A stretch of DNA of 47,273 bases, from assembly GCA_964606975.1 (NCBI GenBank), contig CAZSGY010000026.1, positions 1 through 47,273 of the forward strand, written 5' to 3'. Origin of the DNA: an uncultured Gammaproteobacteria bacterium. GTDB taxonomy: Bacteria; Patescibacteriota; Microgenomatia; UBA8517. Position numbers and translations under genes: made by a program. This document shows positions 2,417-47,273 of this stretch, piece after piece (positions within the stretch are counted from its first letter, which is position 1; each line of letters starts with the position of its first letter). Under the pieces are notes generated by a model. The model saw only the letters and a program-made list of their open reading frames with translations, was not told where the DNA came from and made no database searches.

Positions 2417-2444
2417 AATCAGGTCCTACGCCTGTATTTTAACA

Positions 2445-3485: not shown

Positions 3486-3524
3486 AACAACAGGTTTCAA
3501 GGATACCACATTTGATTTAAGGTG

Positions 3525-5094: not shown

Positions 5095-5099
5095 GAGCA

Positions 5100-15820: not shown

Positions 15821-15823
15821 ATC

Positions 15824-16159: not shown

Positions 16160-16232
16160 GTCTTAATTTTTAGTTAAAAAAGCAGGATACTTAGCCCGGC
16201 ATCGGCTCAAATTATGTCTAATTGTACGATAT

Positions 16233-17741: not shown

Positions 17742-17759
17742 AACATATACAGTTTAAGG

Positions 17760-17765
17760 TATAAT
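17760..17765 (+). promoter_or_regulatory. -10 box TATAAT, 8 nt upstream of the UDP-xylose synthase ATG
   Basis: TATAAT-TTCCCTAT-ATG in the 32-nt divergent intergenic region. Confidence 0.45.
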
Positions 17766-17773
17766 TTCCCTAT

Positions 17774-18727: not shown

Positions 18728-18742
18728 CGGCCGAGAATTTCC

Positions 18743-26375: not shown

Positions 26376-26834
26376 TCAGCCGTTATTTTCCAGTTTTCTT
26401 TTTACACTTGTAAAAAGAGCCCAAGCATCAAATGCGCCAATGCCATGCCTGGCCGCATCCTCCTGATTTGAAGCGATTGCGGGAACACCCACTTGTCGTT
26501 GGTAGCTCCAATCTAAATACGTTGCGAAATTTTTTAGATCTTCATGTGTAGGCAGTAGGCCAGCCTGACTTTGGTGGACAATTTTTCCTGCCTTTTGCAG
26601 GATAGAATTAACATTTTCGGCTTCCAGTACTTCTATGTGCAGGACGCCTCTGTTATTTGATCTCGTTTGCAGTTCATCTGCGAAGGCATTCCCATCTTCT
26701 GTTATTCTTTTGCCAAGATTCTGCCAATTTGGTGAAAGCGGTTTGAGAAGTTTTCCTTTTTGGTCTCTTACCAAAAGGGGTAAAAGTCGTATATTTATTT
26801 CAGATTCCTGTTTTTCGGCAATTTTATCCGCCAT
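26376..26834 (-). CDS. soluble 152-aa protein, unknown function
   Basis: ORF with no TM helix and no motif I recognise. Its only ATG overlaps the FemAB-like gene upstream by 40 nt, which suggests co-transcription. Confidence 0.45.
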   Translation of the reverse strand: MADKIAEKQESEINIRLLPLLVRDQKGKLLKPLSPNWQNLGKRITEDGNAFADELQTRSNNRGVLHIEVLEAENVNSILQKAGKIVHQSQAGLLPTHEDLKNFATYLDWSYQRQVGVPAIASNQEDAARHGIGAFDAWALFTSVKRKLENNG

Positions 26835-27682
26835 ATTTTTTTGAATAATCGATTTTTAGTATAACATCCCGGGTAGATAACTTCGTAGCCTCCGAAAGAA
26901 TGCTTAAAATGGGTAAAACCAAGCCAGCTTCTGTTGGGGAAGCGTGGATCGAAAACGCCTTCAAAATCAAATACCTTATAGCCATTCTTTTTAGCCCATA
27001 GTATTCCTTGCCAGAGAAGGGCATACTGGGCTAGGGAAGTGCGACCCTCCTTATTTGTGAATGCTTGCCAATAATACGTTATATAGTTTGATTTATCGTG
27101 TGAAGAAGTCGTGAAAATCACTCCACCTATAATTCTGCTAACAATATTGTGCGACGCAAGGAAAAGGGAGTGAGATTGTGGAAAACTTTTCTTTAATTTA
27201 ATAAGCTGTTCTGCACTTGGTACATATCGGCGCAACTTAACGGAATTTATCCACTCCTCCCGGAATGTTTTTATTTCTTCGGGGGTTGAGTATTCTGCGG
27301 TTTTTATGCTCCCCCCTTTCTTAATTGCCTGCCTGGCGTCTTTTTTAAAATGCTTTAAGATTTCAGCTTTCGGTTGAGTTAGGTCAATTTGAAGAGTTTT
27401 GGAGGGCAAATATGTGGTTTTGGCCAATTTAAAGCCGGATGACTCCAGGTATCTGGCATCCAAATCGCTTTTAGGCTCGATTATAATTTGATAAACACCG
27501 TATTTTCGGCATAATTTGTTGACCGTGTCCATTCTTATTTCCTCCGGCCTTTGAAGTTTTAGAATAGAGCCTAAGAATGGCATCTTTTTTATGAAGTAGT
27601 TGATTTCAGCGATTCTTTCTACTGTCCAGCCAAGACTTTTGAGGTATTTAGCATAGGATTCGCTTTGTCTGATATCAAACAT
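26795..27682 (-). CDS. FemAB-family aminoacyl-tRNA-dependent peptidoglycan peptide-branch transferase-like protein
   Basis: FemAB-like layout: QSESYAKYLKSLGW, an FKKDARQAIKKGG block, and YYWQAF...AQYALLWQGILWAKKNGYKVFDFEG. ATG at 27682 shares 1 nt with the upstream TGA stop. Confidence 0.7.
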   Translation of the reverse strand: MFDIRQSESYAKYLKSLGWTVERIAEINYFIKKMPFLGSILKLQRPEEIRMDTVNKLCRKYGVYQIIIEPKSDLDARYLESSGFKLAKTTYLPSKTLQIDLTQPKAEILKHFKKDARQAIKKGGSIKTAEYSTPEEIKTFREEWINSVKLRRYVPSAEQLIKLKKSFPQSHSLFLASHNIVSRIIGGVIFTTSSHDKSNYITYYWQAFTNKEGRTSLAQYALLWQGILWAKKNGYKVFDFEGVFDPRFPNRSWLGFTHFKHSFGGYEVIYPGCYTKNRLFKKIWRIKLPKNRNLK

Positions 27683-28659
27683 CAAAATCTATTTTTGGAC
27701 AACCCTGCCTTGGCTAAAGTTTTAAGGATTTTCCAACGAATTTGCTCCGCTACTCTATAGATCCGATAGGCCGGCTTATTTATCACCAAATCCCATGTTC
27801 CCAAAAATTCCACAACTTTAGGGCCGTAACCTTCTTTAAATTTAGTAAATCCCTTTCCTTCTTCCCTCCCCCATAAGTCAAAAGTCTTGAGATTGAGATT
27901 GCGACCGAATTTAATTGCTTCCCACATAATTAAATTATTTGCCATAACCCCCTTATACTTTTCGGTAGATGCTCCGTATGGATAATAAAGAAAATCTTTC
28001 CAGGAAAAAAGTATCCAAGTAGTAATAATTTCCCCGTTATAAGTTGCCGTTAGTAGGTGGGCTATGCCGGCTTCTCTTAAAATTTTCCACATAAGCTTAT
28101 GGTATCTTTCAGAGTGTGCGTAAAAAGCTTGTCTTTGTGTTGTCTCACGGGTTAGGTCTAAGTATTTTTTGAAAGCTTTATCGGAATTATCTTCCTGAAC
28201 TTTTACTCCTTTTCTTTCGGCCAGGCGGATGTTGTAACGGGTCTTGGTGCTAAAACTTTTCAAAAGTTCATCCTCGGATTTGGTTAAATCAATCCAAAAG
28301 GTGGTCGGGGTAAAAAATCTTTTACCGGGTACGGCCCCGTTACGTATTAGGATTTTTTCTAGTTTGGATTTGTTTGTACCTTGTGATCTGGGAATTGGAA
28401 TTTCCCAACCGACGTTTGGTTCTAATTTAATAAAAACAATATTATTGTCTCCCGCAATCTTTTTTAGTCCGGTTAACATTTCCTGGCTGGGAGCCGGACC
28501 TTTTTCAAAGATGGCCAGTTTATAGTTTGTCAGAGGAATTTTGTGAACGGTTAAGATTCCCCATGGGGTTTTCAAAACTTCGTTGCCCCATTCTTTTCTA
28601 AAATTTCCCCAAAAGGTTGTTTGCAGGGGATGTGTTGAAATGGCATCAATTTTATTCAT
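27682..28659 (-). CDS. FemAB-family transferase (FemX-like)
   Basis: PLQTTFWGNFRKEWG, TRYNIRLAERKGV, FLYYPYGAS and ANNLIMWEAIKFGRNLNLKTFDLWG. The start overlaps the pcrA stop by 8 nt. Confidence 0.78.
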   Translation of the reverse strand: MNKIDAISTHPLQTTFWGNFRKEWGNEVLKTPWGILTVHKIPLTNYKLAIFEKGPAPSQEMLTGLKKIAGDNNIVFIKLEPNVGWEIPIPRSQGTNKSKLEKILIRNGAVPGKRFFTPTTFWIDLTKSEDELLKSFSTKTRYNIRLAERKGVKVQEDNSDKAFKKYLDLTRETTQRQAFYAHSERYHKLMWKILREAGIAHLLTATYNGEIITTWILFSWKDFLYYPYGASTEKYKGVMANNLIMWEAIKFGRNLNLKTFDLWGREEGKGFTKFKEGYGPKVVEFLGTWDLVINKPAYRIYRVAEQIRWKILKTLAKAGLSKNRF

Positions 28660-30562: not shown

Positions 30563-31655
30563 GCTTGATCATTCTACAGTACTTTCTAACGTACCGAAAA
30601 GAGATGTTTCCGGAAAATCCAAATGGAAAAGAGCCGGTAAGGTTATCCTATTTTCATTCCTGACCTTGTTTTTAATTATTTTTCTGGGAATAGGGGTGTT
30701 TTTTATCAGGTTCCCTATGTTTGCCAAGGCGGCTTATAATTTTGTTGCCTTGCCCAAAAACCCAATTTCTTCCGGCAGCGGATATGTAAACATTTTAGTT
30801 ATGGGTAAGTCCGGGGGAAGTCATGAGGGTTCAGAACTAACAGATTCGATGCTTATTATTTCGCTTCCATTGGAGGGAATGTCTAAAATTACAACGGTTT
30901 CCATTCCCCGCGATATTTGGATTCCTGAACTTAGAGCCAAAATAAATTCAGTTTATTACTGGGGTAAAGAAGGAACACCCTATTTTAAGGTCGAAGAAAC
31001 GGGTGGAGGAATTTCATTTGCTAAAAAAATAACAGGAGGAGTCATCGGACAGCAGATTGATTATGGTGTAGTAGTTGATTTCTCTGCCTTTAAAGATACC
31101 GTGGACGCCATTGGTGGAATTGAAGTAAATGTTGAAAGAGGTTTTATAGACAAGCTCTATCCGATAGAGGGAAAAGAAAATGACATGTGTGAAGGAGATT
31201 CTACCTATGCCTGCCGGTATGAAGAAGTGGTTTTTGATTCAGGTTTGCAGCAGATGGACGGGGAGACTGCTTTGAAATTTGTTCGTTCGCGCCACGCCGA
31301 AGGAGATGAGGGCACTGACATTGCCAGAGAGGCCAGACAACAAAAAGTAATTAAATCGATAGAAAATAAAATTATGTCAAAAGACGTCTTGTTTTCGCCC
31401 GGGAAGATTGCAAACATTTTTGATATTGCTGAAAAATATGTTGAGACCGACATAGACATTCCGACCGCCGGGATATTGGCCAGGTTGACTTATGAAAGCA
31501 GAAATAATGTTTCTCAAAACGTCTTGCCCGAAGACTTGTTGGTGAATCCCAAACCCAGCAAGGATTATGACAACTTGTATGTGTTTATCCCTAAAGCGGG
31601 CAACGGGAAGTGGGAAGAAATTCAGAACTGGTTTAGAGTTGTCAATGGCGACTAA
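30561..31655 (+). CDS. LytR-CpsA-Psr (LCP) family cell-wall glycopolymer ligase
   Basis: N-terminal TM anchor, then YVNILVMGKSGG...LTDSMLIISLP...TVSIPRDIWIP and ALKFVRSRH. Confidence 0.85.
   Translation: MLDHSTVLSNVPKRDVSGKSKWKRAGKVILFSFLTLFLIIFLGIGVFFIRFPMFAKAAYNFVALPKNPISSGSGYVNILVMGKSGGSHEGSELTDSMLIISLPLEGMSKITTVSIPRDIWIPELRAKINSVYYWGKEGTPYFKVEETGGGISFAKKITGGVIGQQIDYGVVVDFSAFKDTVDAIGGIEVNVERGFIDKLYPIEGKENDMCEGDSTYACRYEEVVFDSGLQQMDGETALKFVRSRHAEGDEGTDIAREARQQKVIKSIENKIMSKDVLFSPGKIANIFDIAEKYVETDIDIPTAGILARLTYESRNNVSQNVLPEDLLVNPKPSKDYDNLYVFIPKAGNGKWEEIQNWFRVVNGD
30571..30578 (-). promoter_or_regulatory. TGTAGAAT -10 element, 8 nt upstream of the pcrA ATG (inside the LCP coding sequence)
   Basis: The minus strand reads TGTAGAAT-GATCAAGC-ATG. 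Confidence 0.5.
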
Positions 31656-32809
31656 AAACTCACCCAGCCAAATTTATTAATCCAAAGAACGCCCCACAAA
31701 TTAATCAATATAGACACACTCAAAAGCAGCCAGTGGTGCCAGGCAGGATTTTTTGAACCGAGAGCGTTTACTATTAGCAGAAGCACTAGAGGGTAAAAAT
31801 CAACTGCATATCTATAACCAAATTGGGTAAAACCTGTTCCTCCGTGGATAAAGATAACAAATGCGATTAAAAAAATGGACACCCAAGTAAAAAGATTTAT
31901 CCTCGATTTTAATGGTGCACCAAACGCATAAATAAACGCCGGACTGGTGATAAATATTGAGAGGCCTGCCCAGGACGGCGTGATGTAAGGAAATTCATTT
32001 TTGAGTATTGGGGTAGAAAAAAACATCACTTTAAAATTTGGCCAAATATAAGAAAGGTCAAAAATACCGTTTTTATACCATGGCTCACTGAGCACGCCCG
32101 GAATGAGTCCGTAACCGGTTTCAAAAAAACTACCGAATCTCAGGTAGTTGTACAACGCAAAAAAAACACCGAAAAAAGAAAGACCTAGCAATATTTTCAG
32201 ATAATTTTTGTTTAAATAAAGAATTAGCGGTAAAGCCAGAATTGTTTGGATTCTCGATAAAAACGCAAAACCAAAATATAGAACTACCAAATACCATCTT
32301 TTCTTGTTTAAAGATTCGTAGATCGTTAAAGTTAGAAACAAAAATGCAGAAACTTGTCCGAGATACCAGACGGATCCAGTTGATGCCAAAAACCAAAGAA
32401 TATTTCCGAAAGCTGTCAATAAAAACACCCAAAGAGAGGTTAGTTTGTTTGAAGTTTTTTTGTATGCTATAAGAGCCCAGATAAAAGCTGCCAATGCCCC
32501 CATGATGTGAGCCAGTATCTGTTGCTGAAAATTTTGGTTTAGGATGAGAAGAAAAGGAATTGCGACTATTGCCGGTGCCGGAGGGTAAACAACTGCGAAT
32601 TTGTTCGTTCCGATGGGAATAAGCTCGTTTAACCACGGAGGGTTGTCTGTTAAATAATATTTTCCCTGCAAAAATGCAGTTCCAAGCCTGGTAAAATAGT
32701 CATAAGGGGTTCGTCCGGCCGAAGTCGCTAAATAAATAAAAAATGTTACGACAGTCAGTATTATTAGAAATATATGCCAGGAAGTAAGATTTTTTAGCTT
32801 TTGAAGCAT
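31652..32809 (-). CDS. polytopic membrane protein, GT-C-like putative glycosyltransferase
   Basis: About 10 TM helices. The first loop has RTPYDYFTRLGTAFLQGKYYL...VYPPAPAI. The call rests on architecture and context only. Confidence 0.5.
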   Translation of the reverse strand: MLQKLKNLTSWHIFLIILTVVTFFIYLATSAGRTPYDYFTRLGTAFLQGKYYLTDNPPWLNELIPIGTNKFAVVYPPAPAIVAIPFLLILNQNFQQQILAHIMGALAAFIWALIAYKKTSNKLTSLWVFLLTAFGNILWFLASTGSVWYLGQVSAFLFLTLTIYESLNKKRWYLVVLYFGFAFLSRIQTILALPLILYLNKNYLKILLGLSFFGVFFALYNYLRFGSFFETGYGLIPGVLSEPWYKNGIFDLSYIWPNFKVMFFSTPILKNEFPYITPSWAGLSIFITSPAFIYAFGAPLKSRINLFTWVSIFLIAFVIFIHGGTGFTQFGYRYAVDFYPLVLLLIVNALGSKNPAWHHWLLLSVSILINLWGVLWINKFGWVSF

Positions 32810-34700
32810 GATTAATTATACATTTCTTTTTTTGGGAATTTTATTCGTCACTTTCTTACCGGGATATCTGTTGGTGGAATTATTTTTTGCCGAGGTTAAG
32901 TTTTGGAAAAAAATCCCACTCTATTTGGTTGGCAGCGCAATAATGTCTACATTTTTGGTAGCCGCGCTTGGTTTAATCTTTGGTTTAAGTAGAGGTCTTC
33001 TTCTTGGAGTGGCGGCGGTTTTTTTAATAGCAGCTTTATATGTATTTTTTAAAAAGAAAAAATACAATTCCGATGAGATAAAGAAAAGATTGCCGGAAAT
33101 AATAGTCGGAGTTTTTATCTATGCCATTTATTTTACGGCTCTTTATCCCGCCATCTTCAGTTTTTATAACAATTATTTTGTAATGGGCGGTCCGAACTGG
33201 CAGGACACCGCCATGCACTTATCTATCATTGAGAGTATTGCTCAAGGAAATTTCCCGCCCCAGGCACCGTATTTTTCAGGACAACCTCTAAATTATTATT
33301 ATTTTGCAGATTTGCATGCAGCGATAGCGAACATCTTTTTTGGAGATTTTTTCCCTGAGATTCTGACTCTACTTAATCCTTTCTGGGCGGCAACCTTTTA
33401 TTTTTCAGTTTTTGCACTTACTTATCGATTGACCAAGAAAAAAATATTTTCTGTTATTGCCGGCTTTAGCGCCGTTTTTTACGGCAATTTGGGGTTTGTT
33501 AATTTTTTTAATGCCTTAATAAAGCAAAATAAAAACTATTTTGAATTAGTTGCCGTTAATCCCTTCAATTTTAATTTTGATTACCTGCAAATGGTTCCAA
33601 TGTCTGATTATTTTTTGCAAAACAGACCAATGATGGCAGGTTTGTCTCTGGTTACAGTGGCCATATTATTGCTAATTGATTCAAGCAAAAATCGAAAAAA
33701 TATTATTTTTGCCGGAATAATTGCCGGCTCACTACTTAAATTTCAGATGTTTGGCTTTTTAGTTGTTTGGATGTTTTTTGGGATTTATTTTTTTGTAAAT
33801 CTGATAACCAAAAAAATAACTTTTAAGAAAGTGATTAAAGCCGCGATCCTTTTTGCACCCACAACTTTAATATTGGGATTAATTTCAGTGGCTTCAAAAG
33901 TCGGGACCAGATCAATGTTTCAGGTATTCTTGGACAGTTTTTCCTTTGGCCCATGGCAAGCACACGACGCCGGCTGGTTTATTTGGTTTTTTATCGGCAA
34001 TTTGGGAATAGGTTTTGTTGTTTATATTTTTAGTTTGTTTTTAAAACCTTTGAGAAAAGACACCGCCGCTCTTTGTCTGGCCATTCTTTCCTTGGTTTTA
34101 TTGGCCATTCCGGTTTCTATGAAATTTACGCTTTATGAATTTGACATGCTCAAATTTTATTATTATTTAATCCCCTTAATTTCTGTGTTGCTGGGTTTTT
34201 ATTTTGCCAATTCCAAACACAAATCCGCGGCAGTGTTTCTTTTTATCTTTTTGACAATTACTTCTTCGCTAACCTCCATCAATTTGCTTGCTCATTCGTA
34301 TTTGAATAAAACTCTTGGTTATTCGTACTCAGACTACGAGTCCGGAATTTGGATCCGGGAAAATATCCCTCAAAAATCAGTTTTTGTTACCCTACCCACC
34401 GTGCATTCCGCACCCAGCGATATAGGAGGGAGATTAAGGGTAATTTCCTATATTAATTGGCCGTACTCACACGGATTTAACACGGGTTCTGATAATGTGT
34501 TTTCGAGGGTTTATGACGTAAGAGTTGTATATGAAACTGGCGACACTTCTCAAATCAAGCTAAAATATGGGGCAAAGTTTATATATTTGGGACATGAGGA
34601 AAAGGCTCAATTTCCCAACGCCGATCGTGTTTTTGATAAAGAAACAAACTTAAATAAGGTTTACGATAAAGACGGAATCAAAATTTATGAAATTTTTTAA
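32808..34700 (+). CDS. large polytopic membrane protein, GT-C-like (NYYYF loop motif)
   Basis: 630 aa with more than 12 TM helices. The loop GGPNWQDTAMHLSIIESIAQGNFPPQAPYFSGQPLNYYYFADLH is reminiscent of YYY-motif membrane glycosyltransferase-like families. A soluble C-terminal domain is present. Confidence 0.5.
   Translation: MINYTFLFLGILFVTFLPGYLLVELFFAEVKFWKKIPLYLVGSAIMSTFLVAALGLIFGLSRGLLLGVAAVFLIAALYVFFKKKKYNSDEIKKRLPEIIVGVFIYAIYFTALYPAIFSFYNNYFVMGGPNWQDTAMHLSIIESIAQGNFPPQAPYFSGQPLNYYYFADLHAAIANIFFGDFFPEILTLLNPFWAATFYFSVFALTYRLTKKKIFSVIAGFSAVFYGNLGFVNFFNALIKQNKNYFELVAVNPFNFNFDYLQMVPMSDYFLQNRPMMAGLSLVTVAILLLIDSSKNRKNIIFAGIIAGSLLKFQMFGFLVVWMFFGIYFFVNLITKKITFKKVIKAAILFAPTTLILGLISVASKVGTRSMFQVFLDSFSFGPWQAHDAGWFIWFFIGNLGIGFVVYIFSLFLKPLRKDTAALCLAILSLVLLAIPVSMKFTLYEFDMLKFYYYLIPLISVLLGFYFANSKHKSAAVFLFIFLTITSSLTSINLLAHSYLNKTLGYSYSDYESGIWIRENIPQKSVFVTLPTVHSAPSDIGGRLRVISYINWPYSHGFNTGSDNVFSRVYDVRVVYETGDTSQIKLKYGAKFIYLGHEEKAQFPNADRVFDKETNLNKVYDKDGIKIYEIF
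32815..32822 (-). promoter_or_regulatory. TGTATAAT -10 element, 5 nt upstream of the ATG at 32809 (inside the divergent gene)
   Basis: The minus strand reads TGTATAAT-TAATC-ATG. Confidence 0.5.
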
Positions 34701-37107
34701 GAGATATAAAAACATTTTATATCTGCTTTTGTTTGCGCTGATTTTGAGGATACCACTTTCCTTTTTTGGGACTTTGGAACTAGACCAAAATACATTTATT
34801 GCTTGGAGTTCCGATTTGGCAAAAAACGGTTTTAAAAATTTTTACAATGGATGGAGTGATTATTTGCCCGGATATTTATATTTTTTGTGGGGGTTGGGAA
34901 AGGTGAATTTATTAAATATATTTCCGGAAGTCCTTCTCTATAAAATTCCTGGAATTCTTGCTGATTTGGCAACCGGTTTTTTGATTTATGAAATAATTAA
35001 GAAATACAAAAACGAAAAATGGGGTTTAATTGCAGCCGCAATATATGTCTTCAATCCGGCAATAATTGCCAACTCCACTTTTTGGGGACAGGTTGACTCG
35101 CTGACATCGTTAGCTTCAATTGCTGCCGTTTATTTATTAAGTCGGAACTATGTACTTTCCGCTGCCGTCCTGGCCGCCGGAACATTGATCAAGCCCCAGG
35201 CGGCGTTTATTATGCCCATTATTTTTATACTAATGCTTAAAGAAAAATGGAAGTTCTCAAAGATACTTATTTACCTGACTAGCGGCCTTATAGTCTTTAT
35301 TTTGGGGTTTGTGCCGTTTGCCAAAGGAGACCTAATTCCCTTTGTTTTAGATAGATTGACTCTCTCGGCCAACCAATATCCCTATACTTCAGTAAATGCA
35401 TTTAATTTCTGGGGGCTTTTTGGATTTTGGAGACCTGACAATATTTACCTCCAGTTTGGGGGGTATCTTGTTGTTTTACTAACAACAGTTTTATTTTCCC
35501 TAAAGTATGCCAAAAAGAAGCTTGCCGTTTACTATCTTTTGACTTTTGTTTTTGCTGCCAGCTTTATGTACTTTACACGAATGCATGAAAGACACCTCCT
35601 GCCGCTTTTGGCTCCGTTGGCAATAGTATCTGTCGACAACCCCGCACTTTTGCTCGTGTATTTGGGGTATTCGCTAATTTATTTTGCCAATTTGGTTTAT
35701 TCTTATTTCTGGATCTCAAATAATTTTATTCAGGTTTTTCCGGATTTTTTTATCAAGTTATTAATTTTTTTAAATAACTCATTTTTAATATATATAACTT
35801 ACGTCATATTAAAAGACAAAAAAGTGTCTTGGAAAAGATTTTCGTCAATATTTATCTTATTGGCTAAGAAAATAAAAAGCAGGAAAACCAGGGTTGTTAA
35901 GTTGCCGGATCTAAAATTAAATAAAAATACAATTAAGGCGATTCTTTTTTTGATTTTGGGGTTTGCATTTGTTACTAGGGTTTTTGATTTAAGCAAACCC
36001 GATACCATGTACTTTGATGAGGTTTACCACGCTTTTACCGCCAAGGTGATGATGGGGCCTGAATCTTATAAAGCTTGGGAGTGGTGGAACACTCCTCCTG
36101 AGGGGTATGCGTATGAATGGACACATCCGCCTCTGGCCAAATTGGGAATGGTTTTGGGAATGTCCATTTTCGGTCAAACCTCATTTGGGTATCGGATTCC
36201 CGGAGCCATCTTGGGAGTGGGAGCAGTATTTTTGGTCTATCTTATTGCCAGGCATATTTTTAAGGACGAGGCAATCGGATTAATGGCAGCGGCCGCGTTT
36301 TCTTTAGATGGTCTGGCGCTTGTCATGAGTCGGATTGGAATGAATGACAGTTATATTCTTTTTTTCTCCTTACTTTCTATTTATATGTTTATGAAAGAAA
36401 AAGATTTGTTTTCTGCTACCTCCTTTGGTTTGGCTATTTCTTCAAAATGGTCTGCCGTTTGGGCGATTCCGATCTTTTTTGTTTTGTGGCTAAAGCGAAA
36501 AAACAAATTCAAACCCTCGATTTTTTGGTTTGTGCTTTTACCGCCGGTTATTTACCTCTTGTCGTATTTGCCGATGTTTGCCACGGGGCACACTCTGTCC
36601 ACATGGTGGGGAATGCAACAGCAAATGTGGTGGTATCACACAAGGCTTGAAGCGACACATCCTTACACGTCTCAGTGGTGGACGTGGCCGCTTTTAATCC
36701 GACCGATTTATCTTTATACAAGTAACGAAATAGGAGGTATGGTCAGTAGAATCTATGCAATGGGCAATCCGTTTGTGTTTTGGTTCGGTTTGCTTTCGGT
36801 AATTGCCTCAGCAGCTTATGCGGCAATTGAGAAGAACAAAAGCCTGGGATTGGTGGTTTTTTCCTATTTAATTTTCTTTGCAGCTTGGGCAGCATCTCCG
36901 AGAATTATGTTTTTGTATCACTATTTACCCTCCGTCCCATTTATGGCAATTGCCACCGCTTATGTCTTGCGCCGGAACTCAAAACTTGTACCGCTTTATT
37001 TTGGATTGTGTTTTCTGGCGTTTGTTTATTTTTACCCGCATTTTATCGGATTAAACATCCCCCTTGCCTTGGATAGAAGCTATTATTGGTTGAGTACCTG
37101 GAGATAG
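34687..37107 (+). CDS. fusion of two GT-C modules: N-terminal mannosyltransferase-like module plus C-terminal Pmt-type protein O-mannosyltransferase module
   Basis: Residues 1 to ~390 are polytopic with LDQNTFIAWSSDLAKNGF...YLPGYLY. Residues ~400-806 carry YFDEVYHAFTA, WTHPPLAKLG and C-terminal HPYTSQWWTWPLLIRPIY, typical of bacterial Pmt. Confidence 0.65.
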   Translation: MKFFKRYKNILYLLLFALILRIPLSFFGTLELDQNTFIAWSSDLAKNGFKNFYNGWSDYLPGYLYFLWGLGKVNLLNIFPEVLLYKIPGILADLATGFLIYEIIKKYKNEKWGLIAAAIYVFNPAIIANSTFWGQVDSLTSLASIAAVYLLSRNYVLSAAVLAAGTLIKPQAAFIMPIIFILMLKEKWKFSKILIYLTSGLIVFILGFVPFAKGDLIPFVLDRLTLSANQYPYTSVNAFNFWGLFGFWRPDNIYLQFGGYLVVLLTTVLFSLKYAKKKLAVYYLLTFVFAASFMYFTRMHERHLLPLLAPLAIVSVDNPALLLVYLGYSLIYFANLVYSYFWISNNFIQVFPDFFIKLLIFLNNSFLIYITYVILKDKKVSWKRFSSIFILLAKKIKSRKTRVVKLPDLKLNKNTIKAILFLILGFAFVTRVFDLSKPDTMYFDEVYHAFTAKVMMGPESYKAWEWWNTPPEGYAYEWTHPPLAKLGMVLGMSIFGQTSFGYRIPGAILGVGAVFLVYLIARHIFKDEAIGLMAAAAFSLDGLALVMSRIGMNDSYILFFSLLSIYMFMKEKDLFSATSFGLAISSKWSAVWAIPIFFVLWLKRKNKFKPSIFWFVLLPPVIYLLSYLPMFATGHTLSTWWGMQQQMWWYHTRLEATHPYTSQWWTWPLLIRPIYLYTSNEIGGMVSRIYAMGNPFVFWFGLLSVIASAAYAAIEKNKSLGLVVFSYLIFFAAWAASPRIMFLYHYLPSVPFMAIATAYVLRRNSKLVPLYFGLCFLAFVYFYPHFIGLNIPLALDRSYYWLSTWR

Positions 37108-37109: not shown

Positions 37110-37397
37110 TTAGGCGGGTGCCAAATAAAAACCTCCCTTAACGATCACATACACAAGCGCTCCCAAAAAGAGGATCATAATTAGAAAGTAAATAACCGAC
37201 CATTTGCCGGATTTTGGAAAAAATTTGTCAAAAGGGTAATAAGAGAAGATTTCCGGCTTTAATCTTTTTAGGGAGTAAGTTGTTATCCAATAGGCAAAGA
37301 AAAATACTATTAGAAATCCGATCACAAAAATTATATCAACATAATTTGTCCGGATAAAATCTATTCCGGGTGTGATTGAAGAAATAATTTTGTTCAC
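37110..37397 (-). CDS. two-helix membrane protein, unknown; last gene of the PilN/PilO-led operon
   Basis: 95-aa hydrophobic ORF, 6 nt downstream of the preceding gene. Confidence 0.45.
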   Translation of the reverse strand: MNKIISSITPGIDFIRTNYVDIIFVIGFLIVFFFAYWITTYSLKRLKPEIFSYYPFDKFFPKSGKWSVIYFLIMILFLGALVYVIVKGGFYLAPA

Positions 37398-37403: not shown

Positions 37404-37898
37404 TTAGAGAGCCAAAAGTATTGCGCCTAAGATTATCAAGATGCCAAATCCGGCACCAAAAAGTGTGGGCCAACCGGTCCCGGATTGGGGAAGCGATGCT
37501 TCGGTGGGTGTCGGGGTGGCAGTATTAACACTAACCGATGTCGACGTCGGTGTGGCGGCTGCCTTCGTCGGCGTTGCTGTCGGTGTCGGGGCGATATAAC
37601 CTGTTGGGGTTGGTGTCAGTGTAGTAAGCGGTGTGGCCGTTGCCATAGCAGTGGTAGTTGGGGTTGCGGTCAAAGTCGGAATTGGGGACTCAGTGGGTCC
37701 GGAGATTGTAAAAGTTATCGAACAATTATTTACGGGCGCCACATTTTCTGCTTTGGGAAGACTTTCGGGGACATTAGGAGCAACAGGTTCTTGTCTTAGC
37801 TCATACAACCTAATGGCGGTGAAGATGGCAATTCCCGCCAGGATAACAGTTGTAATTATTATTAAAATTGTTCCGAGTTTGCTAACTGGTTTTTTCAT
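37404..37898 (-). CDS. Thr/Pro-rich surface protein with LPQSG C-terminal sorting-signal-like tail
   Basis: N-terminal signal/anchor, then a ~90-aa T/P/A-rich low-complexity region, ending ...TPTPTEASLPQSG plus a 24-aa hydrophobic tail. Confidence 0.6.
   Translation of the reverse strand: MKKPVSKLGTILIIITTVILAGIAIFTAIRLYELRQEPVAPNVPESLPKAENVAPVNNCSITFTISGPTESPIPTLTATPTTTAMATATPLTTLTPTPTGYIAPTPTATPTKAAATPTSTSVSVNTATPTPTEASLPQSGTGWPTLFGAGFGILIILGAILLAL
37407..37493 (-). other. sorting-signal-like C-terminus (LPQSG at 37479-37493 plus hydrophobic tail)
   Basis: LPQSG-TGWPTLFGAGFGILIILGAILLAL-stop. Confidence 0.5.
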
Positions 37899-37907: not shown

Positions 37908-38927
37908 TTAAAACCACCCCAACGTGGCGTGGTGAACTTGTCCTGTGACTGAAAAAGTTGTTGTTCCTTCAGGTATGGTATAAGACTGACAATAAATAGT
38001 AGATTCTGGTTTTTGAGTGGTTCCTGGTTTCAGCATTGTGGTATCTGACTGTTGTACTCCGTTGATAATAAATCTGGCCATGTCAAAAGAGCCTGAAGTT
38101 GCAGAACCTGACACACATAAATTAATTACATCTCCGGCCTTTAATGAAGACCTATCAGTTGATGCAAGGGTGTTCCAGTCGGCATCAAAGGTTGTTACAC
38201 TGCTACAGCTGGCGGTCGTTGTGGGGGGCGCAGTTGGGGGCGTAGTTGGGTTGGTCACGGGGGGTGTTGTGCTACTGTCGCATTGTTTGGGACTAAGAGA
38301 ACATTGAACAGCATAGGGTTCTTGTCCGTCACAAATAACGGCGGTGTTAAAACACCACCACTTTCCATATTCATAATTTTTCCAGGTATAGCCGGACGGA
38401 CAAAGGCAATTCCCATCAGGAACAATAATTCCGGGGTTACCTTTTAGGTTATAACAAGCATACTCATTATTTTGTCCACCCTGGAAACAATCTCCTGATA
38501 CAACATTGCCGACGCAGGAGTGGCTTCCTAAATTTTCACATATAGGATAAACAGCCTTTTGTTGGAAAAGTTGTTTTTGCCCGACCGTGTAAGTTGCGAT
38601 AGCAACACCTCCGACCAGTGCAAAAATTCCTAAAATTGTGGCGATTATTTTTCCTGTCCCAAATTTTTTCTTGGGTGTAGAAGTAATGTTGGAAAAATCC
38701 GGGGGTGGTGCGGCCGACCCGGGATTGCCGGCTGGTGTTACTGGAGTAACAGGAGAAGCTGCTTGATTCACCGAGGTGTCCGGGGTCAATGTGTCCTGTG
38801 GAGCGGTTGTAACATTCGAGAAATCAGTGGGTGTGGGAGGCAAATCAGTTTGAGGGGAAAATGGAGCGGATCCAAGATCGTTTGTCTGCGGGGTTTGGCT
38901 TGGGTCGGGCTGATTTTGGTTGGGCAT
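37908..38927 (-). CDS. type II-anchored protein: P-rich tail, TM helix, 10-Cys module, T/P linker, beta-rich C-terminal domain
   Basis: 339 aa with 10 Cys within 88 residues (ICENLGSHSC...SLSPKQC). The start codon shares 1 nt with the upstream stop. Confidence 0.6.
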   Translation of the reverse strand: MPNQNQPDPSQTPQTNDLGSAPFSPQTDLPPTPTDFSNVTTAPQDTLTPDTSVNQAASPVTPVTPAGNPGSAAPPPDFSNITSTPKKKFGTGKIIATILGIFALVGGVAIATYTVGQKQLFQQKAVYPICENLGSHSCVGNVVSGDCFQGGQNNEYACYNLKGNPGIIVPDGNCLCPSGYTWKNYEYGKWWCFNTAVICDGQEPYAVQCSLSPKQCDSSTTPPVTNPTTPPTAPPTTTASCSSVTTFDADWNTLASTDRSSLKAGDVINLCVSGSATSGSFDMARFIINGVQQSDTTMLKPGTTQKPESTIYCQSYTIPEGTTTFSVTGQVHHATLGWF

Positions 38928-40300
38928 TAATTTTTATTAGATATCTTCCAGGTATAGAAACTAAATGAAATTACTACTAATCCCATCATAAACAGCAGAA
39001 TGCTTGGAGTCAAGCTTCCAGATTGCGGCAGGGAAGCTTCGGTTGGTGTAGGTGTTTTTGTGGGTTTTGGTGTAGGTGTTTTTGATATAGCGGGGGCTAT
39101 CGTGGACAGAGGTGTTGCACTTGGTTTTGGCGTGGGTTGGGTTGTGGCAGGTGTGTTTACTGGTGTTCCCGATGGAGTGGCAACAAAAGCCGGCAATTCT
39201 CCTGCTTGAACAACAAAACTTCTGGTCAGAGTTCTTTTAATCCCGGAAACATCTACCCAAGAGATGGTAACAGAATGGGTTCCCGGGGCTAAATTTGTTG
39301 GCGGTGACCAACTCCAGAGACCTGCGGAAGAAACTTTAGACGTTCCTGAAATTTGATTTTCTGAGTTAACGATAATAGTAATTTCTGTTCCCACAGGTCC
39401 CTCACCAAAAAATTCCGGTTTCTGGCTTGAAATTATTTCCCCTTCAGAAACGTTCTCCAGCGTTACACTTTTTGTTTGTGTGATTTTCTCACCGTTTAAG
39501 TTGAATTTTGATTCGATAGTTGCCGATTCAGGCAAGTTTAAGTCCGCGCTTGGGTTTTCTCCATCTAAACTTGGTTCGAGACTCCTAAAATCCTGATCCC
39601 GGCCGATGATTAATGCGGGAATGGGGTTGGCGGATCTGGAAAATATTTTTGCAGTTGCCATCTCGCCCGGGCCATTGGCGGCAGAAACCTCCAAAAGTGT
39701 TTTGTTCGCATCCACCTGTGCATATGCAGCGAGGTCTGTCGTTCTTACAGAACCAATTTGTAAAACAAACGTCCCATTGTCGGATGATAGTGTGGAAACG
39801 GTGTAGCCATTGATTGTTATATAAACTATCGCCCGTTTTACCACCTCGCCGGAAGCAGTAATTACCGAACCGGAAACCGGAATTGTTATCGGACTAATAG
39901 GTAAAAGGGCGCCCGTGGTAAATTGCCAGGGAACTCCATTGTTATCAAAAGTTGTTCCTTCGGAATTAATTTTAAAAAAATATTCCGTATTTGGATTCAG
40001 TCCCGTAAGGGTAATGCTGTGGGTAACAAATTTATCATCATTTTCAGTTTCGTTAATTAAAGTCCCCACATTTTTATTTGTTCCATACGAAACAAATCCC
40101 GTTGTTTGGTCGTCTGTAATCCAAGAAATAGTTGCCGAAGAATCGGTTAGATTGCTTATTCTGACATCTTTTGGGGTAATCGTTGGCCCGGCCCCAATTT
40201 TAAATATTTGATTGTTTTTTAAAAGAAACACCCCGGCAAACACTCCGGCGAAAAGCAAGAGTATTCCTAAAATGGTAGGGATTTTATTTTTTTTGATCAT
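38927..40300 (-). CDS. multidomain surface protein (Fn3-like, CarboxypepD_reg-like, Ig-like) with T/P linker and LPQSG tail
   Basis: Fn3-like SATISWITDDQTTGFVSYG...LTGLNPNTEYFF. Ig-like GLWSWSPPTNLAPGTHSVTISW. C-terminus TPTPTEASLPQSG, then a hydrophobic helix, then KISNKN. Confidence 0.65.
   Translation of the reverse strand: MIKKNKIPTILGILLLFAGVFAGVFLLKNNQIFKIGAGPTITPKDVRISNLTDSSATISWITDDQTTGFVSYGTNKNVGTLINETENDDKFVTHSITLTGLNPNTEYFFKINSEGTTFDNNGVPWQFTTGALLPISPITIPVSGSVITASGEVVKRAIVYITINGYTVSTLSSDNGTFVLQIGSVRTTDLAAYAQVDANKTLLEVSAANGPGEMATAKIFSRSANPIPALIIGRDQDFRSLEPSLDGENPSADLNLPESATIESKFNLNGEKITQTKSVTLENVSEGEIISSQKPEFFGEGPVGTEITIIVNSENQISGTSKVSSAGLWSWSPPTNLAPGTHSVTISWVDVSGIKRTLTRSFVVQAGELPAFVATPSGTPVNTPATTQPTPKPSATPLSTIAPAISKTPTPKPTKTPTPTEASLPQSGSLTPSILLFMMGLVVISFSFYTWKISNKN
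38930..39031 (-). other. sorting-signal-like C-terminus (LPQSG at 39017-39031, hydrophobic helix, basic end)
   Basis: LPQSG-SLTPSILLFMMGLVVISFSFYTWKISNKN-stop. This is the tripartite layout of sortase-type signals. Confidence 0.55.
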
Positions 40301-40620
40301 TGTTCAGGTAAGCCGCTGGGTGACGCCTCAGGTGTGGCTGAAGGTAGAGGTGTCTCCGTTGTTGGCGTTTGTACAGTACTCGTTGGCCCGCTAAAACTCA
40401 TTTGCGGAATTTCCGAATCGGGTATAAAAATTGCAGATTCAATTTTTTGGATCACTTTAGTGTTCAGAGTCGGATTTAAAGGTTTCAATACTTCTTCCGG
40501 GACAGGTGTCGGAGGTTTTACAGAGATGGCTCTATAAATACCCAGACCCACCCAAACCAGGGCAGTCAGGAGCGTCAGAATAAGTATTGTTATTGGTTTT
40601 GGTAAGGATTCCTTTTTCAT
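40297..40620 (-). CDS. small single-pass membrane protein with T/P-rich C-terminus
   Basis: MKKESLPKPITILILTLLTALVWVGLGIY... ATG at 40620 lies 1 nt after the PilO-like stop and is preferred to the 40677 start. It overlaps the next gene by 4 nt. Confidence 0.5.
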   Translation of the reverse strand: MKKESLPKPITILILTLLTALVWVGLGIYRAISVKPPTPVPEEVLKPLNPTLNTKVIQKIESAIFIPDSEIPQMSFSGPTSTVQTPTTETPLPSATPEASPSGLPEQ

Positions 40621-40621
40621 A

Positions 40622-41281
40622 TTATTTGTCGCTTCCCAGATAAGGCACTCTTCCGGATACAACCGCAACGATGACACGACCCGATTCTGTAACCGAGGAA
40701 TTTATGGTAATACTGTCGATTGCAGAAATAGTCCTGAGCTTTTCTAAATCCCTAATAAAATTACTTATGTTGGCATAGCCGCCCCTGATGCTAATAGAAT
40801 ACCCCATTTCATTTGCACCTTCGGGGAGAGGTTTAAGCTCTCCCGAAACTCTAACAGTTTTTGGACTTCCCACAAGAATAACGTCATTGATAACAAGGCC
40901 TATAAGCTCCACCCCGTCTCTGGCAGATAAGCCTTCGATTTGTTTTGTAAACAAATCGGGACTCGGCGCAGAAGAAACAGCTGTGTTAATTTTCTCTAAA
41001 TACATTTGGTTTTGGATCAAAACACCATTGGCTTTTTGTAAATCGCTGACTTTTTGGTTAAGTGCCTCAAGGGTTTTCTTTTCCTCTTTAATTTGTTGGA
41101 CAAGGCTAATAATGGTTATAGCCGTAGGTTTGAGTGCAAACATAGCAAAAATAATTACGGTTACAATTGACAGAACTATTTCCAGGAAGGCGCGCAAATC
41201 AGCCCTTTTTTTATAAAGGGAGGAAATATTCAAAAATAACTCTTTGTATCTGTAGTATGACGATCTCCAGCCTGTTGCCAT
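40622..41281 (-). CDS. pilO: PilO-like type IV pilus/T2SS-type assembly protein
   Basis: Basic N-terminus, one TM helix, a coiled coil (QQIKEEKKTLEALNQKVSDLQKAN), and a C-terminal block YANISNFIRDLEKLRTISAIDSITI. Confidence 0.6.
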   Translation of the reverse strand: MATGWRSSYYRYKELFLNISSLYKKRADLRAFLEIVLSIVTVIIFAMFALKPTAITIISLVQQIKEEKKTLEALNQKVSDLQKANGVLIQNQMYLEKINTAVSSAPSPDLFTKQIEGLSARDGVELIGLVINDVILVGSPKTVRVSGELKPLPEGANEMGYSISIRGGYANISNFIRDLEKLRTISAIDSITINSSVTESGRVIVAVVSGRVPYLGSDK

Positions 41282-41282: not shown

Positions 41283-41813
41283 TTAGTATTTAATATTAAT
41301 TACAAACTCGATTTCACCTGCATTTTTTTCCGATGAGTTTACTGGTCCAAGTTCGGCACTTTTAAACGAACCATCTTGTAAGCCGGCTACAAATCTGGAT
41401 ATGTCGTAATCTGACAGAGAAGATCCTCTGACTTCTATTGAGTCTTTAAATAACGAAATTCTGGATAATACAACAGTTTCCGGAACCTTGCTGGTCACCT
41501 TTTCTACCAACGAGGACATCTGGTTGCTTTGACCCGTTTTATCAAAAACGTTTAATTTTGTCTGAACACCCCTGAATTGTTTTTCCAGATCTGCCTGGGC
41601 TGAAATTTGAGCACTTTTTACTTTGATGGAGTTATTTAAACTGGAATTTTGTGCATCCAGCCAAAAACGTGACAAAAACGCTGCCATGACTACCATTTCC
41701 GTAACAATAACTATTATGCGGAAAGTGCCGGTTGTCCACTTAAGAATACGACCTGCTGTTGAAGCGTTGAACTCCTCTTGTGGCAAAAGGTTAATAGATT
41801 TATTTTTGGGCAT
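41283..41813 (-). CDS. pilN: PilN-like assembly protein
   Basis: N-terminal PilM-docking-type motif SINLLPQEE, then a TM helix, a coiled coil and a small alpha/beta domain. ATG at 41813 preferred to the TTG at 41837. Confidence 0.68.
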   Translation of the reverse strand: MPKNKSINLLPQEEFNASTAGRILKWTTGTFRIIVIVTEMVVMAAFLSRFWLDAQNSSLNNSIKVKSAQISAQADLEKQFRGVQTKLNVFDKTGQSNQMSSLVEKVTSKVPETVVLSRISLFKDSIEVRGSSLSDYDISRFVAGLQDGSFKSAELGPVNSSEKNAGEIEFVINIKY

Positions 41814-41943
41814 ACATCGCGTTGTTTTAATTTCCAATTATTGCACGCCAATTTTCAATAAAAAATGAGATCTGGCAAATAGGAAATGTGCTCTAATCAA
41901 TATAGCACATGTAAATGCGTGAAAGAAGCTTTGTTAATGAGAA

Positions 41944-42237
41944 TTATTTCCCCTTCGAAGAAACCTTTTTTACTGTCTTAGCGGCGGCCTTTTGGGGAGC
42001 CTTGACCGCAATCAGTTTAGAAAGCTGGGATTTTATTCTGGAAGCCTTATTTTTGTGAATAATCTTCTTTTTTGCGGCGCGGTCGGCAAGAGAGATGGCG
42101 GAAATTACTTTATCATTACTTTTAGATTTTTTAGCCATGCGGATTGAGATTTCCAGTCTTTTGATCAAAAGACTGTTAACTTTGTTTTTATTTTTGGAGC
42201 CCCTTAGTGCCCTTTTTGCTGTTTTGGTTACTGGCAT
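41944..42237 (-). CDS. rpsT: 30S ribosomal protein S20
   Basis: 97-aa basic protein with TKTAKRALRGSKNKNKVN...DRAAKKKIIHKNKASRIKSQL. Confidence 0.9.
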   Translation of the reverse strand: MPVTKTAKRALRGSKNKNKVNSLLIKRLEISIRMAKKSKSNDKVISAISLADRAAKKKIIHKNKASRIKSQLSKLIAVKAPQKAAAKTVKKVSSKGK

Positions 42238-45384: not shown

Positions 45385-47273
45385 ATGGGAAAAATAATAG
45401 GTATTGATTTAGGAACAACAAATTCATGTGTGGCAGTGATGGAGGGTGGCCGCCCTAAAGTTATTCCTGCCGTGGATACGGGTAAAAATACTACTCCGTC
45501 AGTTGTTGAACCAGTCAAAAATTTAGTAGGAGATGTGGCCAAGAGACAAATGATTCTTAACTCCAAGAATACGGTTTATTCGGCAAAACGCCTTATGGGA
45601 AGACGCTTCGAGGACAAGGAAGTTAAGCGCACCATTGACATGGTACCTTACAAAATTGCAGAAGGTAAAAACGGAATGGCCGATATTGAGATCGATGGCA
45701 AGAATTACACTCCCCAGGAGATTAGCGCCAGAGTTTTAATGAAACTTAAAAAAGATGCGGAAAAATATCTGGGTGAGAAAGTTGATCAAGCCGTTATTAC
45801 AGTCCCTGCGTATTTTGATGATGCACAGCGACAAGCGACAAAGCAAGCCGGTGAAATTGCCGGATTAAAAGTTGAGCGCATTATCAATGAACCCACAGCC
45901 GCGGCTTTAGCGTACGGATTGGATAAGAAAAATTCCGAAAAGATTGCGGTCTACGATCTTGGAGGAGGAACCTTTGACATTTCCATTTTGGAAATCGGAG
46001 ACGGAGTCATTGAGGTTAAGGCGACAAATGGGGATACGCATTTGGGAGGAGACGATTTTGATGCAGCAATAGTGGATTACATTGTTTCTGAATTTAAGAA
46101 AGAACAGGGAGTAGACCTCAAAGCAGACACCCAAGCTTACCAGAGAGTCCGTGATGCTGCAGAAAAGGCAAAAATTGAACTTTCCGCCGCTTCGGAAGTT
46201 GAGATCAACCAACCATACATCACTCAAAAAGATAGTCAGCCTCTGCATCTGACAATGAAGCTTACCCGGGCAAAAATGGAAAGCTTGGTTGACGAGCTGA
46301 TACAAAAAACCCTTAAGCCCGTAGAACTTTGCTTGAAAGATGCAAAGCTGGATGCACACGATGTAAATGAAGTGGTTATGGTCGGAGGTATGACCAGGAT
46401 GCCCAAGGTGGTCGAAACAGTCAAAAACTTTTTCGGTAAGGATCCGAACCAATCGGTAAATCCCGACGAGGTTGTTGCGGTTGGGGCTGCAATACAGGGC
46501 GGAGTTTTAGGTGGTGAGGTTAAGGATATTCTGCTTTTGGATGTCACTCCGTTGACACTGGCTATAGAAACTTTAGGCGGAGTAGCCACGCCCATGATTC
46601 CCAGAAATACAACCGTTCCTACCAGTAAGACCGAGGTTTTTTCAACTGCGGCAGATAATCAAACTCAGGTCCAAATCGTTGTAACTCAAGGAGAGCGTCC
46701 GATGAGTGCTGATAACAAAACTTTGGGGACATTCATTCTCGATGGGATTCCCCCCGCACCCCGTGGTGTCCCGCAGGTTGAAGTTACATTTGATATGGAT
46801 GCTTCCGGGATTTTAACTGTTACCGCCAAGGATAAGGCAACAAGTAAAACTCAGAATATTAAGATTACCGGTGCAGTCGGACTCTCTGACGACGAAATCA
46901 AACGTATGCAGGAAGAAGCTGAGAAGCACAAAGAGGAAGATGAAAAGAAAGCCGAACTTATCAAAACCAAAAATAATGCAGACGCTATGGTGGCTACTGC
47001 TGAAAAAGCACTTAAAGACGCGGGCGACAAGGTTTCAGCCGATGTGAAGTCTAAGGTTGAAGAAAAGATTTCCAAAGTTAAGGAAATTGCCGGAAAAGAA
47101 GATTCCAGTAAAGAAGACATTGAGACAGCAACAAAAGATCTTTCGGACACATTAAGTCAGATCGGTCAGACTATGTATGGAAACCAAGATGCCCCCCAGG
47201 GAGAACAATCAAAAGAAGGTAATGGAGAAGAGAAAAAAGAAGAGAAGAAGGACGAAAAAGTTGAAGAGGGAGA
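45385..47273 (+). CDS. dnaK: chaperone DnaK (3' end outside the window)
   Basis: ATG at 45385. [42 protein letters not shown]. The frame is open to the window end, so it is absent from the ORF track. Confidence 0.96.

Follow-up and report, generated by a model that had tools for sequence, protein, structure and literature searches.

Two types of putative sortase sorting signal that coincide over 13 residues in surface proteins of a Woesebacteria contig

Why do two proteins of one bacterial contig share the same 13 residues close to their C-termini, and what would such tails be for? The question is raised by a 47,273-bp contig of an uncultured bacterium of the Microgenomates (CAZSGY010000026.1, assembly GCA_964606975.1; GC content 40.6%), which was analysed over its full length and is called the window here. 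A protein of 164 amino acids (aa) and a protein of 457 aa both carry TPTPTEASLPQSG, followed in each case by a hydrophobic helix. Where they are named, the homologues of the 457-aa protein are labelled Woesebacteria, Microgenomates or Patescibacteria, and no other label occurs. A first-pass annotation of the window, made from the DNA letters alone, had found the two tails and described them as one signal of sortase (LPXTG) or exosortase type, with Ser in place of Thr and an extended conserved part upstream. Its placement of the motif proved correct, and both open reading frames (ORFs) are complete on the minus strand:

37404-37898, minus strand: the 164-aa protein, a complete ORF at a conserved position in a gene cluster
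37479-37517, minus strand: TPTPTEASLPQSG of the 164-aa protein, with LPQSG at 37479-37493
37407-37478, minus strand: type 2 C-terminal segment of the 164-aa protein, TGWPTLFGAGFGILIILGAILLAL, a Gly-rich helix of 24 residues that has no basic tail and ends in LLAL
38927-40300, minus strand: the 457-aa surface protein, a complete ORF with Pfam domains
39017-39055, minus strand: TPTPTEASLPQSG of the 457-aa protein, with LPQSG at 39017-39031 and a putative sortase cleavage site between Ser and Gly
38930-39016, minus strand: type 1 C-terminal segment of the 457-aa protein, SLTPSILLFMMGLVVISFSFYTWKISNKN, a hydrophobic helix with a basic tail

Bacteria of the Candidate Phyla Radiation (CPR) presumably live attached to other cells, and most of their surface proteins await characterisation. 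We read both C-termini, with a probability of roughly 0.7, as sortase-type cell-wall sorting signals of surface proteins in a member of the Woesebacteria (Microgenomates, CPR) that has a Gram-positive-like envelope. The single signal of the first-pass annotation does not stand. Judged from the sequences of their relatives, the tails are two distinct conserved types that coincide over 13 residues in this species alone, and we will call the tail of the 457-aa protein type 1 and that of the 164-aa protein type 2. What is most useful here is the uncurated type 2 tail and an unclassified sortase in the Microgenomates; the 457-aa protein joins the LPXTG-anchored surface proteins. Sortases in CPR bacteria and the general idea of wall-anchored CPR proteins are already known, and one sortase family has been described as near ubiquitous in the Microgenomates (Meheust et al. 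2019, PMC6744442).

The 457-aa protein is composed of an N-terminal hydrophobic signal or anchor, a domain resembling fn3 and the N-terminal domain of purple acid phosphatases, a CarboxypepD_reg-like domain, a Big_13 immunoglobulin (Ig)-like domain, a Thr/Pro-rich linker and the type 1 signal. An exact-sequence look-up returned no record of this protein, and 491 homologues have been found, all from Woesebacteria or Microgenomates where they are named. The part after the Gly of LPQSG has 29 residues, with the hydrophobic stretch SLTPSILLFMMGLVVISFSFY and the end ...YTWKISNKN, whose basic KISNKN had been pointed out in the first-pass annotation. In 116 of the 120 listed homologues, the pentapeptide has the form [LVIM]P-x-[TS]-G and precedes xLTPTxLL…, a helix and W[KR]; GPVTG or SPATG stands in the other four. 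Most frequent are VPVTG (32), LPQSG (14), IPVTG (12), LPVTG (9) and LPVSG (8). The Pro and the Gly are invariant both in an alignment of 30 homologues and in the 116 tails, and every one of these tails has a Lys or Arg within its last 12 residues. The consensus of the type 1 segment is xLTPTLLLSIMGxxVxAFSFxVW[KR].

Relatives with more than ~58% identity to the 457-aa protein mostly carry LPxSG, and more distant ones carry [VIL]PxTG. The same orthologous site is thus taken by Ser in some relatives and by Thr in others, and the Ser that the first-pass annotation had noticed in place of Thr is a variant of the lineage. The NCBIfam model LPXTG_anchor (TIGR01167) gives the window protein 15.0 bits, just below its cutoff of 15.9, and matches 20 of 30 relatives of the family at E <= 1 (best E 3.6e-4). 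Type 1 thus looks like a canonical sortase sorting signal that departs slightly from the consensus.

In the 164-aa protein, a conserved N-terminal transmembrane segment (…LAGIAIFTAIRLYELRQEPVAPNVPESLPKA) precedes a short stretch containing Cys, a linker rich in Thr, Pro and Ala, and the type 2 tail; the protein shows no significant match in Pfam or NCBIfam. Its orthologues occupy the same cluster position in Woesebacteria loci. Their tails follow the pattern LP-x-S-G-T-[DGSN]-WPT-xx-G-x-G-x-G-…-GS-x-LLAL, with PTEA[AS]LPxSG typical of the close clade. When the 38-residue tail was used as a HMMER query against 1.84 billion representative proteins, 53 matches were obtained, all of them at the extreme C-terminus and, in this search, solely in proteins that are named Microgenomates or Woesebacteria or are unnamed. 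The length after the Gly is 24-25 residues in 49/49 usable tails, and a Lys or Arg after the Gly is found in none of these 49, as against 116/116 for type 1. Position 4 of the pentapeptide is Ser in 28, Ala in 13, Thr in 5 and Val in 3 of the tails, and in the main family there is little or no variation in Leu, Pro and Gly.

The passengers of the type 2 tail are varied. In the cluster protein itself, the middle part ranges from nothing to DUF11, fn3 or Cys-rich inserts, and the tail also ends cohesin-domain proteins and proteins with the N-terminus of a 339-aa protein that is encoded between the two genes of the window. Since it is found only at C-termini and on DUF11, fn3, cohesin and Cys-rich passengers, the type 2 tail can be regarded as a modular sorting or anchoring module. 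The NCBIfam sorting-domain models, including LPXTG_anchor, match 0/47 type 2 members, Pfam Gram_pos_anchor (PF00746) matches 6/47 weakly (best E 0.011), and a few members weakly match models of sortase-dependent surface proteins or isopeptide pilin domains. The type 2 tail resembles an LPXTG signal but falls short on the basic tail and on the model score, and there is no curated model for it. The cohesin proteins with this tail adjoin dockerin genes (L039, 1-10879; L041, 8068-10783), which suggests a cell-surface cohesin-dockerin assembly in CPR bacteria. The dockerin-bearing neighbours include a pectate-lyase-like beta-helix protein, a metallophosphatase and an AttH protein.

The motif is thus borne by many proteins among the relatives, and sortases are present in Woesebacteria; a motif confined to two proteins of a genome with no partner peptidase, the outcome that the first-pass annotation had named as speaking against its proposal, was not what the relatives showed. 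A Woesebacteria sortase was used as a phmmer query against six-frame segments of at least 50 aa from the window and from all related loci, and among the loci it matched just L041 and L039, with no match in the cluster flanks of any relative. The sequence of Staphylococcus aureus SrtA and an active-site regular expression found nothing among all locus ORFs, with low sensitivity. Three contigs with type 2-tailed cohesin proteins (L041, L039 and L040) were followed for sortases. L041 encodes a complete PF04203 sortase (19305-19979, minus strand) ~8.5 kb from the type 2-tail gene on the same contig, and L039 a partial one (20296-20877) ~9.4 kb from its type 2-tail gene, also on the same contig; no sortase lies within 10 kb of the type 2-tail gene of L040. 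The L041-type sortase adjoins radA and has 1031 homologues, several of them named Woesebacteria, with the catalytic His and the ILYTC Cys motif in 114/120 sequences. Its family is also present at L056/L057 (3001-3807). The partial sortase of L039 is more conventional and passes TIGR01076 (44.2 against 39.35). The contigs of P0248 and P0069, considered as a possible case of a sortase and the cluster on one contig, come from different samples and show no joint contig.

According to the mechanism that we propose, both proteins would enter the membrane by their N-terminal hydrophobic segments, and the C-terminal helix would retain the precursor there. LPQS|G would then be cut by a sortase, a cysteine transpeptidase bound to the membrane and encoded at another place in the genome, which would transfer the Ser carboxyl to the amino group of a FemAB-built peptidoglycan cross-bridge, in lipid II or in the wall, or possibly to a Lys of another subunit. 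The Thr/Pro-rich linker would cross the wall and could be O-mannosylated by a neighbouring PMT-family enzyme. Both proteins begin with a basic stretch, and a hydrophobic segment of 20 residues comes next; as these N-terminal segments are unusually conserved, they may be retained as anchors. The envelope genes in the window are of Gram-positive type according to Pfam and comprise two FemAB genes, an LCP ligase, MurJ, VanW and an M23 peptidase. The FemAB pair provides the context of a Gram-positive-type wall with a cross-bridge nucleophile that a sortase could use:

26795-28659, minus strand: two FemAB-family genes (Pfam FemAB), peptidoglycan cross-bridge peptidyltransferases

How two types of tail came to be identical over 13 residues is a separate question. 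The codons of the two 13-mers differ at 9 of 13 positions, always in the third base and always synonymously, and these are exactly the nine pairs listed in the first-pass annotation. Identical codons number 4/13, and independent draws from the codon usage of the window predict 3.77; no DNA-level relatedness is therefore left between the tails. The same two tails are present in L030, an independent assembly of the same species (96% protein identity), so an artefact of assembly does not explain the identity. The species also occurs in the Logan runs SRR13007710, SRR12983583 and SRR12983585 and in the JGI contig Ga0074197_1016741. The type 1 13-mers of the window and L030 differ by 5 synonymous changes and no replacement, in a gene with 39 synonymous changes over 452 codons; under neutrality, all five would be synonymous with P = 0.003. 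The DNA of the 13-mer in the 164-aa protein is identical in the two. The 9 synonymous and 0 replacement differences between the tails, together with the 5 and 0 between the strains, argue for selection at the peptide level, which the first-pass annotation had preferred to a recent DNA duplication.

The identity does not extend to the relatives. Both genes are present in 21 other genomes, but there the two tails have only 2-8 of the 13 residues in common, and tails paired within a genome match no better than permuted pairs (p = 0.56 for all 13 positions, 0.77 for the upstream eight and 0.18 for the pentapeptide). At the site of the EAS that precedes LPQSG, the orthologues of the 457-aa protein have PAA, PDS, ETS, PES, AEP and others. 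Because agreement is limited to 2-8 of 13, shuffled pairs are as alike as true ones, and genomes exist with VPVTG in one tail and LPQSG in the other, EAS is not a conserved extension of the signal as had been supposed. A co-evolving extended motif as a general rule was rejected, as within-genome covariation is absent across the 21 genomes. The 13-residue identity is confined to this one species and does not represent a general extended recognition motif. As a query in a collection of 5.8 billion proteins, an exact match of the 13-mer is worth just 14-17 bits (E >= 300). A metagenome scan for the codons of PTEASLPQSG gave 14 matches, made up of one type 2 gene of the same species (L045), one unrelated LPQTG protein and chance matches; it contained no further PTEASLPQSG substrates, a weak negative since the species is barely present in that collection.

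Within the close clade, the shared 13-mer is typical of type 2 tails and atypical of type 1. The type 2 tails of L001, L003, L005 and L002 read PTEAALPVSG, PTEVALPQSG and TPEAALPESG, and in type 1 tails the frequencies at the upstream positions are 0.03 for E, 0.18 for A and 0.26 for S. Type 1 relatives with 76% identity already carry E-T-S-LPQSG. The type 1 protein P0007, whose inspected contigs all end right after the type 1 gene, carries PTEAALPVSGTS, a sequence identical to the type 2 tails of L001 and L003 as far as two residues beyond the Gly. On the evidence of the window species and P0007, a type 1 tail appears to have moved toward type 2 sequence more than once. From position-specific residue frequencies in 116 and 49 relatives of the two families, the chance of a 13/13 match is ~10^-7, and a rough estimate within the close clade is 10^-5 to 10^-4.

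Several points weigh against sortase processing of both tails. There is no sortase in the 47-kb window, as the first-pass annotation had already stated; this was established with Pfam for 44 ORFs, the largest that are not nested in others, each of at least 95 aa and all except one reaching 100 aa (smaller nested ORFs left out), and with the six-frame phmmer search. The L041-type sortase scores 13-21 bits against NCBIfam class A-F cutoffs of 39-166 (TIGR01076, NF033745-8), fits none of these classes and is a divergent member of the superfamily outside them, and we know of no experimental evidence for the cleavage of sorting signals in CPR organisms. Many genomes have VPVTG in type 1 and LPQSG in type 2, and as the two tail types differ in this way, one enzyme may not serve both; TPTPTEASLPQSGT, AAAAAAAALPQSGT, VPVTGD and LLDAGV would be suitable peptides for comparing cleavage by a Woesebacteria sortase. 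Canonical sortase substrates need a positively charged C-terminal tail. The tail of the 164-aa protein has no such end and is scored by no curated anchor model, its helix is far more conserved than a disposable signal requires, and the cohesin orthologues P0176-P0183, which have an otherwise typical type 2 tail, have lost the Pro of the pentapeptide (LLDAG, LLDSG, LIDAG). With no basic tail, a conserved helix and these relatives, type 2 is where sortase processing explains least, and there is room for a permanent anchor or another enzyme. Type 2 might then be no sortase substrate at all, only the 457-aa protein being sorted. It could be a permanent C-terminal membrane anchor in which LPxSG-TxWPT forms a conserved juxtamembrane hinge that packs against further bitopic proteins encoded in the cluster; alternatively, another intramembrane enzyme, for instance a rhomboid-type protease, could act on it. 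The fixed 24-25 residues with no basic tail in any of 49, the strong conservation of GxGxG…GSxLLAL and WPT, the looseness of position 4 (S > A > T > V) with Pro gone in some cohesin orthologues, the 0/47 matches to LPXTG_anchor and a gene that always lies among those of other single-pass membrane proteins would suit such a role. We nevertheless consider it decidedly unlikely, because Leu, Pro and Gly are (nearly) invariant in the main family, spacing and layout agree with the type 1 signal, the passenger domains are those of Firmicutes sortase substrates, and sortase and tail-bearing genes share the contigs L041 and L039; rhomboid and exosortase genes are missing from the window (Pfam ORF scan) and from the loci (precomputed Pfam labels only). 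A tentative possibility, somewhat doubtful in our view, is that the 164-aa-type tail is a distinct uncurated C-terminal sorting domain (LP-x-[SA]-G-T-x-WPT, Gly-rich helix, LLAL) served by the unclassified Woesebacteria sortase or by another enzyme, is perhaps no simple wall anchor, and has in this clade drawn the signal of the fn3 protein onto its own sequence (VPVTG -> LPxSG -> PTEASLPQSG). If so, the product might be a membrane-to-wall tether that retains the conserved N-terminal helix, or a fibre polymerised by sortase through the conserved Lys of the N-terminal VAPNVPxSxPKA, and capture of type 1 by type 2 sequence would mean that the enzyme reads residues upstream of the pentapeptide.

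The 13-residue identity itself most likely reflects a type 1 tail that drifted onto type 2-typical sequence under peptide-level selection and against a low-complexity Thr/Pro background. Intragenomic gene conversion, in which a short type 2 tract was copied into the type 1 gene and then decayed synonymously, would account for a PTEA[AS]LPxSG that is typical of the clade's type 2 tails and unusual in type 1, and also for P0007, where the likeness to L001 and L003 includes the two post-Gly residues. It is unlikely, however, as codon identity at the random level leaves no DNA trace of it and as nine synonymous differences without a replacement would need long and strict purifying selection at a place where orthologues vary freely. 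The E-T-S-LPQSG of the 76%-identical relatives suggests a stepwise approach instead of a single event, and the 21 genomes show no within-genome homogenisation. It could also be held that the identity beyond LPQSG is a functionless coincidence in a low-complexity Thr/Pro linker; in both families, no kind of sequence is commoner at these positions than TPTPT, covariation within genomes is absent, and the metagenome scan shows the 10-mer in no other protein family of the lineage. With the low chance of a full match, both family-wide and by the rough estimate within the clade, and with a peptide that is the same in both strains although its 13 codons have undergone 5 synonymous changes, such a coincidence is very unlikely.

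The closest known system is LPXTG/SrtA (TIGR01167, PF00746). It shares with the two tails a pentapeptide that has an invariant Pro and Gly and lies ~25-30 residues from the C-terminus (LPQSG is followed by 24 residues in the 164-aa protein) and a subsequent hydrophobic helix, as well as a basic tail in the 457-aa protein, a Pro/Thr-rich linker before the motif, adhesin-like Ig/fn3 passengers and a FemAB-type wall; the N-terminal hydrophobic segments of the two proteins may correspond to its export signal. It differs in that Thr gives way here to Ser or Ala and relatives may have Val or Ile for Leu, in the lack of basic residues and the fixed conserved helix of the 164-aa tail, in curated models that score at or below threshold, and in a partner sortase of the relatives that lies outside classes A-F. 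Natural LPxSG and LPxAG variants in surface proteins of S. haemolyticus (PMC7137321) and in PrpA of Enterococcus faecium (PMC4682149) have been treated as sortase substrates. They show the same change of Thr to Ser or Ala at position 4, but they are sporadic in genomes dominated by LPXTG, whereas LPx[SA]G rules a whole tail family in the Microgenomates. ScaE of Ruminococcus flavefaciens is a sortase-anchored cohesin scaffoldin. It is comparable to the type 2-tailed cohesin proteins encoded beside dockerin genes in the relatives, and it differs in that these belong to a CPR lineage and carry a tail variant, and in that the two proteins of the window have no cohesin domain.

The tripartite layout, in which a C-terminal signal follows a Thr-rich and probably glycosylated linker, is also shared with PGF-CTERM/archaeosortase A, PEP-CTERM/exosortase and GlyGly-CTERM/rhombosortase. 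Those signals end in a basic cluster, which type 2 does not have, and the PGF, PEP and GG signatures are absent here. Of the two comparisons made in the first-pass annotation, the sortase (LPXTG-like) layout was retained and the exosortase layout was dropped, as no signature and no model match was found. Exosortase, archaeosortase, rhombosortase and type IX secretion system (T9SS) readings were rejected because the motif is absent and because the sorting models remained unmatched at E <= 1 in the two proteins and in 30 and 47 relatives, the lone exception being one T9SS match with E 0.91. Weak matches of type 2 proteins to models of ArtA-dependent S-layer glycoproteins stem from the composition of linker and helix. 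Exosortase, archaeosortase and rhomboid genes were found neither in the Pfam scan of the window ORFs nor among the Pfam-labelled genes of the related loci.

The [LVI]Px[ST]G signal together with its variant lacking a basic tail offers a handle for listing the wall-anchored surface proteome of the Microgenomates. Since current anchor models miss the second variant, annotation pipelines under-call sortase substrates in this group. The divergent sortase could have a different specificity and might be useful as an orthogonal ligation enzyme. At its core, what has been found is a variant of the sortase signal, and the 13-residue identity is a peculiarity at the level of the species; most of this is ordinary biology.

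Both genes belong to a densely packed minus-strand run, convergent with the gene of the PMT-family enzyme and divergent from murJ. The members of the run and its neighbour, in addition to the two genes above, are:

41944-42237, minus strand: rpsT, upstream neighbour of the cluster
41283-41837, minus strand: PilN-domain bitopic membrane protein, the first cluster gene after rpsT (Pfam PilN 26.1 bits, cutoff 22.8; synteny)
40622-41281, minus strand: PilO-like bitopic membrane protein of 219 aa, present in all loci (Pfam PilO 19.7 bits, below the cutoff of 22)
40297-40677, minus strand: small N-terminally anchored protein with a Thr/Pro-rich tail, a cluster member
37908-38927, minus strand: 339-aa bitopic protein between the two sorted proteins, a member of the conserved cluster
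37110-37397, minus strand: 95-aa two-helix membrane protein at the end of the run; in roughly half the loci an equivalent follows the type 2 gene
34687-37107, plus strand: 806-aa PMT-family protein O-mannosyltransferase (Pfam PMT_2, PMT, PMT_4TMC)

The start of the PilN-domain protein is probably an internal ATG, giving ~176 aa, and the small anchored protein probably has ~107 aa from an internal ATG (MKKESLPKP…). The order of rpsT, the PilN-like, PilO-like and small anchored proteins, the fn3/LPXTG protein, the Cys-rich protein and the protein with the type 2 tail is kept in 28/28 Woesebacteria species loci from GTDB genomes, and further metagenome contigs agree in gene order. The PMT gene, one of several GT-C glycosyltransferase genes in the window, lies beside the cluster in nearly all loci long enough to show adjacency, and its product is a candidate for glycosylating the Thr/Pro-rich linkers. 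The conserved PilN/PilO-like cluster and the neighbouring protein O-mannosyltransferase are in this way tied to sorted Thr/Pro-rich proteins. As genes for a pilin, PilM or a pilus ATPase are absent from the vicinity of the cluster, the role of the PilN/PilO-like pair may be a different one from that in a type IV pilus. Around the cluster, at 13803-20233 and 31652-37107, the window is dense in multi-pass membrane proteins resembling glycosyltransferases, among them a UbiA-family protein, a GT4 MraY-like protein, two proteins of 502 aa and 385 aa with no Pfam match, a DUF2298 protein and the PMT enzyme.

The 339-aa protein runs from a Pro-rich N-terminus through a transmembrane helix and a variable region rich in Cys to a conserved beta-rich domain at the C-terminus. 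In L030 of the same species, its counterpart has 422 aa (2139-3407), with both ends kept and the central Cys-rich region swapped, and the inspected contigs of a close relative (L033, L034, L037 and L038) all break at the gene of this type. It looks like a strain-hypervariable surface protein. The 339-aa protein also shows an N-terminal pattern that is common to unrelated surface proteins, in which a transmembrane helix is followed by the Gln-rich Q-x-[LI]-x-[QE]-[KR]-A-[AS]; the pattern is found as well in P0137, P0157, P0169, P0172, P0173 and others, and may be a lineage-specific export or cleavage signal.

Two further ORFs of the window can be mentioned. At 4027-5100 on the minus strand, a 357-aa ORF fuses Sua5/YciO/YrdC (TsaC) and TsaE domains and adjoins tsaD (2445-3509). 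At 45907-46452 on the minus strand, a 181-aa ORF matches Pfam NAD-GH, a family that corresponds to hsp70/dnaK genes read in antisense; L001 has hrcA-grpE-dnaK, and synteny with it places dnaK on the plus strand, from ~45.4 kb past the end of the window.

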